DNA of 64,000 bases from Escherichia phage dhabil. The position numbers and the translations under genes were made by a program. The notes beneath the pieces were generated by a model. The model was not told the origin of the DNA, made no database searches, and saw nothing but the letters and a program-made list of their open reading frames with translations. This document shows positions 9,480 through 12,146 of the stretch, in pieces. The stretch lies in the sequence record MN850621.1; one strand, written 5' to 3'. Position 1 is the first letter of the stretch. Each line of letters begins with the position of its first letter.

Positions 9480-10103
9480 TTATTTACGAGTCTTTTCGAA
9501 CTGAGCTGCGTCACCGGCCAGTCGGCGTGCTTGACGAAGTTTGTTGTCAATTTCTTCGCGCATAGGCTGGGTGTACTTAAGGCCTTCAACCGTCAGATAG
9601 AGACGATAAAGGTCTGGTGTGTCCAGGTTGTTAATGTGTTGACCGTTACGAAGAACATTGAATTCACGAACAAGGTGTTTAGTTTCGGATTCTATTTCAG
9701 AAACCAAAGAAGCCAGTTGGTTATATTTTTTAACAATAGTGCTGGTGTCGAACTTGATTTTAGGTTTAGGAGCTTCTTTTACAGGCTCTGCTTTAGGTGC
9801 TGCCGCAGGTTTAGGTGGTGCAACTTTGGTTGGGGCTGCAGGTTTAGCAACAGGAGCTTTAGCTGGTTTAGCAGGTTTAGTAGCGCCACCGGCTACGATA
9901 TCTTTAAAAGCTTTGGAAGCTTTGTAATATTCTTTCTGGTTACTAGTATCAAAACCATACATATCATAAACGTTTTTAAAGAACTCGGTAGTGGTTTTAG
10001 TCCCGGAAATTTTATCATAAGCAGCTTGCCACATATCTTTAGTCATGCGCACGCTGGCTTCAGTCAGAACGCTTTCGTTCAAAAATTCATTGTAAGTTTT
10101 CAT
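9480..10103 (-). CDS. internal head protein (IP) with capsid-targeting sequence and Ala/Pro/Lys-rich linker
   Basis: N-terminus MKTYNEFLNESVLTEA matches the T4 IP capsid-targeting sequence and protease cleavage motif (LTE|A); late promoter upstream. Confidence 0.6.
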   Translation of the reverse strand: MKTYNEFLNESVLTEASVRMTKDMWQAAYDKISGTKTTTEFFKNVYDMYGFDTSNQKEYYKASKAFKDIVAGGATKPAKPAKAPVAKPAAPTKVAPPKPAAAPKAEPVKEAPKPKIKFDTSTIVKKYNQLASLVSEIESETKHLVREFNVLRNGQHINNLDTPDLYRLYLTVEGLKYTQPMREEIDNKLRQARRLAGDAAQFEKTRK

Positions 10104-10131
10104 TATTGTTTCCTGTGTTAATTAACTTATC

Positions 10132-10139
10132 TATTTATA
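10132..10139 (-). promoter_or_regulatory. late promoter TATAAATA (minus strand) for the IP gene
   Basis: Exact TATAAATA ~30 nt upstream of ATG at 10103. Confidence 0.5.
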
Positions 10140-10140
10140 C

Positions 10141-10168
10141 AAAAAAGGCCCAACCTTTCGGAAGGGCC
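10141..10168 (-). terminator. rho-independent terminator at the 3' end of the tRNA/stable-RNA transcription unit
   Basis: Hairpin ggcccaaccuuucggaagggcc followed by U6 on minus strand. Confidence 0.65.
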
Positions 10169-10338
10169 TTTAACCTAGGGTAACCTTGTCGGGGTTCCAC
10201 CTGCTAGGCAAGTGTTCGGTGCGCCGTTTCAGCTGTGAGATAAGGGACTTTAAGAGGAACTCATGTACGCCTTAAAGTCGGGTCTTATTCAGGGAACTTC
10301 AGTCCGACGACTTACCGGTAGCGACCCGGTTTCTTGTT
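10169..10338 (-). ncRNA. possible small stable RNA(s) downstream of the tRNAs
   Basis: 170 nt with no ORF, relatively GC-rich, between tRNA-Arg and the terminator; inferred by analogy to T4 species 1/2 RNAs. Confidence 0.25.
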
Positions 10339-10414
10339 TGGTCGAGACAGTAGGGATCGAACCTACGACCCAGGACTTAGAAGGTCCTTGCTCTTCCTTC
10401 TGAGCTATGCCTCG
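10339..10414 (-). tRNA. tRNA-Arg (anticodon UCU)
   Basis: Manually folded cloverleaf: acceptor cgaggca/tgtctcg, anticodon stem aggac/gtcct, loop cuUCUaa, T-arm gtagg-ttcgatc-cctac, encoded CCA. Confidence 0.8.
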
Positions 10415-10418
10415 TATT

Positions 10419-10493
10419 TGGCGGACATGCATGGATTCGAACCATGGACCAATTGATTAACAGTCAACTGCTCTACCACTGAGCTACACATCC
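10419..10493 (-). tRNA. tRNA-Asn (anticodon GUU)
   Basis: Cloverleaf: acceptor ggatgtg, D-arm gctc-agtggta-gagc, anticodon loop cuGUUaa, T-loop ttcgaat, encoded CCA. Confidence 0.75.
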
Positions 10494-10497
10494 AAAT

Positions 10498-10571
10498 TGG
10501 TGGCCCTGGGTGGAATCGAACCACCATCCAGCGATTATGAGTCGCTCGCTTGACCGTCCAGCTACAGGGCC
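10498..10571 (-). tRNA. tRNA with CAU anticodon (Met, or Ile if lysidine-modified as in T4)
   Basis: Cloverleaf: acceptor ggccctg, anticodon stem agcga/tcgct, loop cuCAUaa, T-arm ggtgg-ttcgatt-ccacc, encoded CCA. Confidence 0.8.
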
Positions 10572-10656
10572 TTAATTCTATTATGAAAGGCTCTTTGAGG
10601 GAAGAACCTTTGGTAATAGAGGGTATTAATGATAGAGTAATAATATCACATAATTC

Positions 10657-10941
10657 TTAAAGCATATTAATATAGTCAAGTTTAATAGAAGCAATCTTCA
10701 AAGGGTTTTTAAAGATGTCGTATTCGACCAATCCATTTTCAGTTGCGGTATAAAAAGTAAAGTTAACAGAATTATAGCGATGGCTGTTAACTTTGAGTTT
10801 AACATCGCTTGAACTACGGCCAATATTAACCTGTTGAACATCAAGCACGGCATCTTTGCCGTAATTTCGAATCAACAACTCGGCTGCAACCTGATCGGAT
10901 TTATAGCCATTCTCTGGATTAGTAACCTTAACGTATAACAT
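10657..10941 (-). CDS. hypothetical protein
   Basis: 94 aa ORF, SD GAGGG, start overlaps upstream stop (TAAATG). Confidence 0.5.
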   Translation of the reverse strand: MLYVKVTNPENGYKSDQVAAELLIRNYGKDAVLDVQQVNIGRSSSDVKLKVNSHRYNSVNFTFYTATENGLVEYDIFKNPLKIASIKLDYINML

Positions 10942-11322
10942 TTAACCCTCGTCTACAATAGTGTGGGTATTGGCATTGACAATCTGCCACCAGTCAAAAC
11001 GATTGGAACCGTAACAAGGCTTATTCTCGTTTTCTTTAATGATATCGCGCAGTTCATCTTCAGTCGCGGCCTTTGCGATTAAGTCAGCATAACCGCCACG
11101 AGGATAATAGTTATCACCGGCAAAGAGCAAAAAGTTTGTTTTGATATTCTTGAATTCTTCAAGAGTAATAACTGTTCCACCCGGTTGAACAATATCTACA
11201 TAACTATATCCTAATTTCTGTGCTTCATTTACCGCTTCAAGCAGGGTGTCATGCGCCCACCCAATTTGGCAATCTGGTTTTTCAGATGGATTTGCTTGAT
11301 AATCCGCATACACTTTATACAT
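10942..11322 (-). CDS. hypothetical protein
   Basis: Start at internal ATG (MYKVYADYQ…) preceded by SD AGGTGAG. Confidence 0.5.
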   Translation of the reverse strand: MYKVYADYQANPSEKPDCQIGWAHDTLLEAVNEAQKLGYSYVDIVQPGGTVITLEEFKNIKTNFLLFAGDNYYPRGGYADLIAKAATEDELRDIIKENENKPCYGSNRFDWWQIVNANTHTIVDEG

Positions 11323-11323
11323 T

Positions 11324-11509
11324 TTACTCACCTTTAGAGATTTTATCCATAACGAAAGAGATTGAACCAATTAAGAATGCCACTACTAAAGAGATTATAT
11401 TCTCGGAAGTTGTAAGCAAATCCAACATGAATCCTGCAAACATACTAAAGCCAAAAGCAGTAACGGCGGCCAGTGCAGTAACATTTCTAATTAATTCACA
11501 ACGTTTCAT
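11324..11509 (-). CDS. small membrane protein (two predicted TM helices)
   Basis: Start after GGAG in the conserved leader (MKRCELIRNVTALAAVTAFGFSMFAGFMLDLL…). Confidence 0.5.
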   Translation of the reverse strand: MKRCELIRNVTALAAVTAFGFSMFAGFMLDLLTTSENIISLVVAFLIGSISFVMDKISKGE

Positions 11510-11545
11510 TTTATTCTCCAATCACTCATTTGTTTTGATAGGGCT

Positions 11546-11574
11546 ATAGTATCATCACTAGAGCCCGTTGTAAA
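11546..11574 (-). promoter_or_regulatory. early promoter cassette with imperfect stem-loop (PeSL-like)
   Basis: Minus-strand -35 TTTACA (11569-11574), 17 nt, -10 TACTAT (11546-11551); inverted repeat gggctctag/ctatagccc. Confidence 0.5.
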
Positions 11575-11579
11575 TAACT

Positions 11580-11858
11580 TTAAAGTGCTTTTTTCAAAAT
11601 ATCAAAGTGCTTGGTGGCGATGTAAACGGTTTTCATTACAGAAGATTCTTGAGCCGGGGAAATAACAATGCTCCCACCGTCTTTTTTAGCATGGTAACCG
11701 TCGCCCAGATAAACAGTACCTTTAAGTTCATCACCATTAAGACCGATAACCGGTTTACCTTCACGGCCTTTGTTTAGGGCTATAACTTCACTCATAACAC
11801 TGGCTTCAGTGATAGGAGCCACTTTTTGAGATTTACTAAATTCTTGATAAGTTTTCAT
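11580..11858 (-). CDS. internal head protein (IP) paralog with capsid-targeting sequence
   Basis: MKTYQEFSKSQKVAPITEA… (CTS with ITE|A cleavage motif); start at second in-frame ATG of the conserved leader. Confidence 0.55.
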   Translation of the reverse strand: MKTYQEFSKSQKVAPITEASVMSEVIALNKGREGKPVIGLNGDELKGTVYLGDGYHAKKDGGSIVISPAQESSVMKTVYIATKHFDILKKAL

Positions 11859-11896
11859 TTTGATTTCCATTTGGTTAGTTTGTTTTTGATAGGCCT

Positions 11897-11925
11897 ATAG
11901 TATCATCACTAAAGCCCTTTGTAAA
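11897..11925 (-). promoter_or_regulatory. early promoter cassette (PeSL-like)
   Basis: Minus-strand -35 TTTACA (11920-11925), 17 nt, -10 TACTAT (11897-11902). Confidence 0.5.
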
Positions 11926-11936
11926 ACATTTTTAAA

Positions 11937-12146
11937 TTATTTTAGCCATGAAGAATTTTCAGAGACCCAGCTATCTATATCTGATTGCGGGCCAAAGAAG
12001 TAGGCAACCCCATTAGATAACTCTCCCGAAAGCCAATTTATACCTTTCAGGCTTTCTTTAAATTCTTCAGGAGTACAAGAAACCTCTATTGCCACCGAAG
12101 AGGCTGACTCCATTGCTTCTGTTAAGAATTCTTTGTATGATTTCAC
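11937..12146 (-). CDS. ipI: internal protein I-like small head protein (CTS-bearing)
   Basis: [11 protein letters not shown]… N-terminus; sits immediately upstream of 57B as ipI does in T4; sequence divergent. Confidence 0.5.

Follow-up and report, generated by a model that had tools for sequence, protein, structure and literature searches.

Three candidate internal head proteins with T4-type capsid-targeting sequences in Escherichia phage dhabil, a Dhakavirus

The 64,000-nucleotide (nt) stretch of Escherichia phage dhabil analyzed here (record MN850621.1; "the window") carries three open reading frames (ORFs) with N termini of the kind that directs T4 internal proteins into the phage head. 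All three are on the minus strand, at 9480-10103 (207 amino acids, aa), 11580-11858 (92 aa), and 11937-12146 (69 aa). We hold it very probable that they encode the only internal (ejected) head proteins of the capsid-targeting sequence (CTS) type in this Dhakavirus, within the 96% of the genome of the near-identical phage dhaeg that was scanned, and that they share the T4-like mechanism, cargo roles, and cargo swapping proposed below. We infer packaging, cleavage, ejection, and targets from T4. In this mechanism, an N-terminal CTS of about 10 residues would dock each precursor onto the gp22 scaffolding core during prohead formation, the gp21 protease would cut after (L/I)xE, and the freed cargo would stay in the head with the DNA, to be ejected into the next host before any phage gene is expressed. 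The 92-aa cargo, an IPI ortholog, would most likely block a GmrSD-type enzyme. The 69-aa cargo, which is acidic and has a small predicted alpha/beta fold, would be a second injected antidefense protein, translationally coupled to acb1. The 207-aa cargo would be a basic, late-promoter-driven bulk internal protein whose Lys/Ala/Pro linker plausibly contacts DNA.

A preliminary description of this DNA had proposed CTS-type starts for these three ORFs, all of which are present. The pattern K[ST]YxEF occurs three times in the six-frame translation of the 64-kb window, each time immediately 3' of the start codon of one of the three ORFs. Within the 164.8 kb scanned of the 170.8-kb genome of dhaeg (MN850609.1; Dhakavirus, Tevenvirinae), the strict CTS was found in these ORFs only, and they would thus be the sole CTS proteins there. 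Tyr4 and Phe7, the mapped targeting residues, are present in 3/3 ORFs, and L-x-E stands at positions 8 to 10 in two. Cleavage motifs of the proposed (L/I)TE|A form were found in all three: the 207-aa ORF has LNE at residues 8 to 10 and LTE|A at 13 to 15, the 69-aa ORF has LTE|A at 8 to 10, and the 92-aa ORF has ITE|A at 16 to 18, an IPI-type site lying further downstream. For comparison, we assembled 72 unique CTS proteins from 36 IMG/VR loci around gene 57B, T4, and four other phages. The motif [LIVMF]xE occupies positions 8 to 10 in 65/72 of these proteins and falls within positions 8 to 22 in 72/72, against a background of 6/122 ORFs with the motif at positions 8 to 10. In T4 IPIII, the first 10 residues are enough for packaging, foreign proteins included; residues 4 (aromatic) and 7 (Phe) are the main determinants of targeting, and residues 8 and 10 govern processing (PMC9026906). 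The mature parts of the three proteins show no pairwise similarity by BLASTP, in agreement with the preliminary description.

The partner proteins of such a pathway are encoded within the same window. These comprise the gp21 prohead core serine protease (42588-43223, plus strand; Pfam Peptidase_S77, 1.1e-103), which is the expected cutter after (L/I)xE; the gp22 scaffolding core protein (43254-44069, plus strand; Pfam T4_CASP, 2.4e-90), the expected docking partner of the CTS; and gp67 (Pfam GP67, 9e-17). The region from 9300 to 12700 is 100% identical to dhaeg, while the whole window shows 95 to 99.98% identity with few indels; the minus strand of the window corresponds to the plus strand of the dhaeg record. 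In minus-strand orientation, the genes follow the T4 order: gene 1, 57A, 57B, the 69-aa ORF, the 92-aa ORF, trna.4, trna.3, and trna.2, followed by tRNA-Met/Asn/Arg, an rnaD-like RNA, a terminator, the 207-aa ORF, and e.8 onward. The three genes had been called dispersed rather than clustered, which overstates their spacing. A gap of 78 nt separates two of them, and the third follows 1.5 kb downstream with the same orientation, an arrangement tighter than the two loci of T4, where ipI is about 7.2 kb from ipIII. A fourth internal protein gene at the position of T4 ipII/ipIII, after denV, was considered and rejected, as the ORF at that place has no CTS. Taken together, all features testable in silico agree with the T4-type interpretation, and the preliminary description was essentially right in observation and interpretation, with two small corrections (the spacing and, as described below, one early-promoter assignment).

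The 207-aa gene (9480-10103, minus strand) encodes a putative precursor that begins with the CTS MKTYNEFLNE and matches phrog_2280 (2.9e-59). Its predicted mature product has 192 aa (21.6 kDa; isoelectric point [pI], 9.7; net charge, +13). The predicted structure comprises an N-terminal helical domain (residues 22 to 71), a disordered linker (residues 74 to 109; predicted local distance difference test score [pLDDT], <50), and a C-terminal helical domain (residues 121 to 205). The Ala/Pro/Lys-rich linker noted earlier was located at residues 73 to 116 (9756-9887, minus strand); it carries a net charge of +8, is predicted to be disordered, and contains imperfect internal repeats (direct-repeat family D2). 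The reported late promoter is likewise in place: the T4-type sequence TATAAATA lies at 10139 to 10132 on the minus strand, 28 nt upstream of the ATG, just after a terminator-like hairpin (GGCCC...GGGCC and then T6; 10141-10170, minus strand) that closes the tRNA/rnaD unit. A stem-loop (9456-9477, no strand assigned) immediately follows the stop codon. Both the terminator and the exact TATAAATA are kept upstream of the gene in JS98, IME08, ST0 (Mosigvirus), and PG7 (Karamvirus), and phage Marfa and Kosakonia phage 305 have one-mismatch versions of the promoter.

We considered whether the 207-aa protein is a homolog of T4 IPIII (PF26861), which inhibits the two-gene GmrSD of ECOR17 and helps head assembly. 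This candidate was rejected. The protein has no Pfam hit at an E value of ≤0.1 (PF26861 included), and hhalign of the mature-part profiles gave only 0.4 to 0.6%; thus, we did not file it as IPIII. By profile comparison, it is an analog of IPIII and not a homolog. Like IPIII, it may join assembly or DNA-organizing and effector roles as an abundant, DNA-associated internal protein. A Foldseek search of its predicted structure against viral models (BFVD) retrieved its own family only, and the matches in the PDB were generic helical ones.

The family of the 207-aa protein is present in 143 phage records, and among the matches listed it is hypothetical or unannotated throughout. Members occur in Dhakavirus, Mosigvirus (∼63% identity), Karamvirus, Marfavirus, and Kanagawavirus (33 to 42%), always between the tRNA cluster and e.8, just 3' of the former. 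Homologs down to ∼33% identity retain the CTS and cleavage motif. The same slot holds a 153- to 157-aa allele in 512 records, mostly of Tequatrovirus. This allele has the same promoter context, with the exact TATAAATA in 5/7 loci, and its C-terminal domain is related to that of the 207-aa allele (hhalign, 84%). Among mosaics P0040, P0042, P0043, and P0044, the same N-terminal domain and linker occur with unrelated C-terminal domains, and a 157-type N-terminal domain occurs with a 207-type C-terminal domain that has a conserved NNL(D/E)TP(D/E)LY motif. An exhaustive profile search of 1.84 billion representatives returned only 15 clusters, domain mosaics among them and all phage-like, and thus no outside homolog lends the family a function. 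In T4 (locus L005, 7800-7890, minus strand), the same terminator hairpin follows rnaC, and GGTATCTAAG then stands in place of TATAAATA and the gene. The absence of the gene from T4 may explain why the 207/157-aa family is missing from the T4 literature.

The same promoter and charge data also fit a different role, in which the 207-aa protein is mainly a structural or DNA-organizing head component (acting in core assembly and in charge neutralization via the Lys-rich linker) and not an antidefense effector. This explanation is compatible with packaging, and we take it seriously without thinking it probable. The late promoter resembles those of structural genes and is kept across genera, the protein is strongly basic with +8 in the linker, and the family is conserved and syntenic between close relatives instead of being hypervariable. 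In T4, loss of IPIII halves the rate of head assembly and reduces the burst size to ∼40% (PMC9026906), and lysines alone among internal-protein residues contact DNA phosphates (PMC3012670). However, T4 lacks the gene and nevertheless assembles heads normally. The shuffling of N- and C-terminal domains among relatives and the alternation of 157- and 207-aa alleles within Dhakavirus are typical of arms-race genes, and T4 IPIII, the analog of the 207-aa protein in size and charge, is itself a GmrSD inhibitor.

Of the three ORFs, the 92-aa ORF (11580-11858, minus strand) has the closest known relative. It matches Pfam IPI_T4 at 1.4e-26 (92.8 bits; cutoff, 25) and is 57% identical to T4 IPI over its whole length, so that one ORF of the set can be called, on sequence similarity, a true IPI ortholog. 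The propeptide MKTYQEFSKSQKVAPITE would precede a mature form of 74 aa (pI 9.0). Against the structure of IPI* (PDB 2JUB), the match has an E value of 8e-23, with query residue 20 aligned to chain residue 2. Because this alignment starts one residue past the predicted cut, the mature N terminus would lie directly after the ITE|A cleavage site. The allele is divergent: among 292 phage records holding IPI, identity reaches ≥95% in 5 and is <60% in 285. An identification of this ORF with the Ip9 of IME08 was tried and found to be wrong, Ip9 being an unrelated 90-aa family. T4 IPI inhibits the GmrSD type IV restriction enzyme of Escherichia coli CT596, and by analogy the most likely role of the 92-aa protein is to bind and block a type IV restriction enzyme of the GmrSD type, directed against glycosylated phage DNA. 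Doubts about specificity had already arisen from four substitutions in RB69 IPI (PMC6024577); thus, the target subtype of the dhabil allele may differ.

Early cassettes had been ascribed to both genes of the ipI locus, which holds for one of them. The 92-aa gene is served by a cassette at 11884-11943 (minus strand) with the promoter TTTACA-17-TACTAT at 11925 to 11897, a TG extension, and a weak stem-loop (z = −1.8). The 69-aa gene (11937-12146, minus strand) lacks such a cassette: it begins at a GTG that overlaps the 57B/acb1 stop (GTGA), and a GAGGA ribosome-binding site lies 6 nt upstream of this GTG. The preceding gene, 57B (12143-12598, minus strand; Pfam Acb1, 6.8e-59), is the Acb1 anti-CBASS nuclease, and the adjacency of acb1 and ipI has been termed an antidefense island (PMC9117128). 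No annotation marks the 69-aa ORF in dhaeg, JS98, or IME08, yet the data identify it as a real gene. Its PHROG match is phrog_23867 (1.8e-42), and it has homologs of 53 to 77% identity in Citrobacter, Erwinia, and other coliphages (28 records in the family), with the CTS and cleavage motif kept down to 53%. An alignment of metagenome homologs contains 34 invariant columns. Against the closest informative relative (locus L015), there are no nonsynonymous changes at a proportion of synonymous differences (pS) of 0.13, and other pairs give a ratio of nonsynonymous to synonymous rates (dN/dS) of 0.10 to 0.22, indicating purifying selection. IME08 and others start the gene with ATG. The predicted fold is beta-alpha-beta-beta-alpha (pLDDT, 83), and the predicted mature form has 59 aa, a pI of 4.1, and a net charge of −6.

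Profile comparisons link the 69-aa family to a 78-aa family (95.6%) and the latter to the 77-aa Ip6 family (90.9%), and these linked families have a C-terminal GPxx(D/V)I(D/E)xW motif in common. The direct match of the 69-aa protein to Ip6 is weak (probability, 27%; E value, 7e-4), compared with 0.1% for the control against IPI. The 69-aa protein is probably a distant relative of Ip6, or a member of an Ip6-like superfamily, as judged from the profiles, and it is probably a second injected antidefense protein. All homologs share Met12 of this ORF (12111-12113, minus strand), which is residue 2 of the predicted mature form (AMES...). A start at Met12 would give an unpackaged copy nearly identical to the processed product; no convincing ribosome-binding site was found for such a start.

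Several results speak for packaged and injected effectors as the common identity of the three proteins. Ip1, Ip2, and Ip3 of T4 each inhibit a different GmrSD-type system, without cross-protection, in agreement with the earlier suggestion that the divergent cargos face different host defenses (PMC12373910). Dhakaviruses are predicted to carry a cytosine-arabinosylation cluster (PMC13326640), which makes type IV or glycosyl-DNA-directed restriction a plausible threat. Other results weigh against this identity. When ip1 to ip10 were assayed against additional GmrSD variants, no new reproducible inhibition was seen (PMC12373910). Our literature search turned up neither virion proteomics nor N-terminal data on Dhakavirus proteins; virion proteomes were sought for Dhakavirus and Mosigvirus and none was found, the Tequatrovirus fPS paper reports none, and phiR1-RT, which has a virion proteome, contains no family member by tblastn. 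The genes of the ipI locus have no exact late promoter of their own, the nearest being 4 kb upstream, ahead of gene 4 (16205-16212, minus strand). It is a possible source of late read-through, on which late expression of these genes would have to rest. T4 ipI has the same promoter arrangement, yet its product is packaged. The mature 69-aa protein is acidic, whereas T4 internal proteins are basic. Finally, searches of the PDB with profiles of the 69- and 207-aa families found nothing below an E value of 0.2, and fold searches with both proteins gave generic matches only; thus, they support no cargo function for either.

The promoter and charge results are also the starting point of the next explanation, namely that the 69-aa protein, and possibly the IPI ortholog too, has a purely cytoplasmic role following early expression and remains unpackaged, its CTS-like N terminus being a recombination scar that came along with the cassette. 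The coupling of the 69-aa gene to acb1, which encodes a cytoplasmic enzyme, points in the same direction, and one may speculate that the invariant Met12 serves as an internal start for a CTS-less form. We consider this explanation unlikely. Positions 1, 2, 6, 7, and 10 of the CTS in the 69-aa family are invariant across genera, and positions 4 and 8 change conservatively, while cargo residues vary. A decayed stub in locus L040 indicates that unused CTSs do decay. T4 ipI also stands in an early-promoter-only context, and IPI is packaged at hundreds of copies; moreover, the 10-residue CTS by itself packages foreign proteins (PMC9026906). A last possibility, that the 69-aa ORF is no gene but a chance reading frame in the spacer between 57B and ipI, might draw on its GTG start and its absence from the annotation of three GenBank/RefSeq records, but it is effectively refuted by the PHROG match, the homologs with their invariant columns, a proportion of nonsynonymous differences (pN) far below pS, the confident fold prediction, the ATG start in IME08 and others, and the GAGGA site.

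The repertoire of internal proteins appears to be built by exchange of cargo. Across ∼40 loci, 24 unrelated families account for the mature parts of the 72 CTS proteins. The ipI slot differs within Dhakavirus: it holds the 69-aa gene and IPI in dhaeg, the 69-aa gene and a unique 97-aa protein in JS98, the 69-aa gene with a 74-aa gene and Ip9 in IME08, and the 74-aa gene and Ip9 in vB_EcoM_005. At this locus, the homology of dhaeg to JS98, IME08, and vB_EcoM_005 ends at 11837 or 11823, within the IPI CTS codons, or at 12141, the 57B stop/start junction. It returns at 11577, in the promoter cassette past the IPI stop (11533-11592, minus strand; 3' of the IPI ortholog and 5' of trna.4), which forms the right boundary of the swap. 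At the second locus, homology to vB_EcoM_005 ends at 10056, with 17 N-terminal residues identical between the alleles; the CTS/propeptide-coding 5' end of the 207-aa gene (codons 1 to 15; 10059-10103, minus strand) is thus the left recombination boundary. There, vB_EcoM_005 carries the 157-aa cargo in place of the 207-aa cargo, and homology returns at 9432, in the early-promoter cassette upstream of e.8 (9379-9438, minus strand; repeat family D1), the right boundary of the post-tRNA swap.

The three promoter cassettes are 60-nt direct repeats, and a 31-nt repeat is formed by the gene 5' ends. In 20/35 related loci, the start codon of a CTS gene and the 57B stop overlap (ATGA or GTGA); the others have TAA followed by an early-promoter cassette. 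The decayed stub of locus L040 (4448-4470), MKTFK*, lies at the 57B stop. As read from these alignments, the repertoire diversifies by homologous recombination that exchanges cargo-coding regions, with the CTS codons or the 57B junction as left boundaries and early-promoter cassettes as right boundaries. As cited in PMC3012670 and PMC12373910, the cassette-exchange mechanism is credited to Repoila et al. (1994, EMBO J 13:4181).

The concept applied here is established T4 biology. Since the system is a textbook one, novelty is limited to its new members, i.e., the unannotated 69-aa gene and the widespread 207/157-aa family. Neither the 69-aa protein nor the 207-aa protein is labeled an internal protein in any genome record inspected. 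A bolder proposal, which we offer tentatively and hold to be rather improbable as a whole, is that the 207/157-aa proteins form a widespread, late-expressed internal head protein family in at least ∼650 T4-like genomes (Tequatrovirus, Dhakavirus, Mosigvirus, Karamvirus, Marfavirus, and Kanagawavirus) whose shuffled domains and Lys-rich linker could deliver a new class of injected antidefense effectors, with the acidic, acb1-coupled 69-aa protein as a second such effector. Injected internal proteins are the first phage proteins to meet host immunity. To our knowledge, targets are known for T4 Ip1, Ip2, and Ip3 only, all of them GmrSD variants. The loci described here supply a divergent IPI allele and two cargo families that are common in therapeutic-type coliphages, that are hypothetical or unannotated among the matches listed, and that lend themselves to screening against type IV restriction and other defenses. 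The N termini are natural variants of the CTS tag used for loading foreign proteins into T4 capsids.

Several neighboring features were recorded in passing. Directly 3' of tRNA-Arg, at ∼10218-10337 on the minus strand, lies an RNA homologous to T4 rnaD (species 2 small stable RNA), with near identity over the 5' ∼55 nt and the 3' ∼25 nt. The dhaeg record does not annotate it and Rfam has no family for it; an Rfam scan of the region returned three tRNAs and nothing else. An ORF of 221 aa that contains an HNH motif (ESHHILPRCMGGGDESTNLVDLTPEEHYLAHQ) lies at 14255-14920 (minus strand), between genes 2 and 3. The corresponding insertion of ∼650 nt is missing from the dhaeg record, and the ORF is thus probably a mobile homing endonuclease. 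On the plus strand, tandem genes for gp24-like vertex proteins (45774-47057 and 47057-48337) both begin with an LxE-containing propeptide. Just beyond the window, positions 38339-42526 of the dhaeg record hold two tandem genes for Alt-like ADP-ribosyltransferases; Alt in T4 is likewise packaged and processed by gp21.

Compared with known systems, the 92-aa gene is closest to T4 ipI. T4 IPI (PF11634; PDB 2JUB) is encoded at the same locus, between 57B and trna.4, is made as a precursor with a propeptide of 18 to 19 residues ending in ITE|A, and has an upstream context consisting of an early promoter only. With only 57% identity between the two proteins, however, the dhabil gene is a divergent allele. 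The mature 207-aa product is nearly equal in size and charge to T4 IPIII* (20.4 kDa; pI 9.65; net charge, +10). Both precursors have a 10-residue CTS with (L/I)xE at positions 8 to 10, and each is the largest internal protein of its phage. Unlike T4 ipIII, which is located between e and denV, the 207-aa gene follows the tRNA/rnaD cluster, has an exact late promoter, and encodes two domains joined by a linker with no detectable homology to IPIII.

The 69-aa gene resembles ip6 and the polymorphic ip genes of the T-even ipI locus in occupying the same hypervariable slot, in having the same CTS, and in a pattern of cargo replacement whose limits are conserved CTS codons at the 5' end and regulatory sequence on the flank. 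In contrast to Ip6, its product is acidic, and the gene is translationally coupled to acb1 without a promoter of its own. Finally, the cassettes recall the PeSL cassettes of RB49 and phi1 (Arbiol et al. 2010, PMC2839356). In both cases, repeats of ∼60 nt with a strong sigma-70-type promoter border small accessory genes, and recombination breakpoints fall at these repeats. The cassettes described here differ in that a stem-loop is found in 2/3 copies and is modest (z of about −1.9), and the left breakpoint falls within the CTS coding sequence and not within a cassette.

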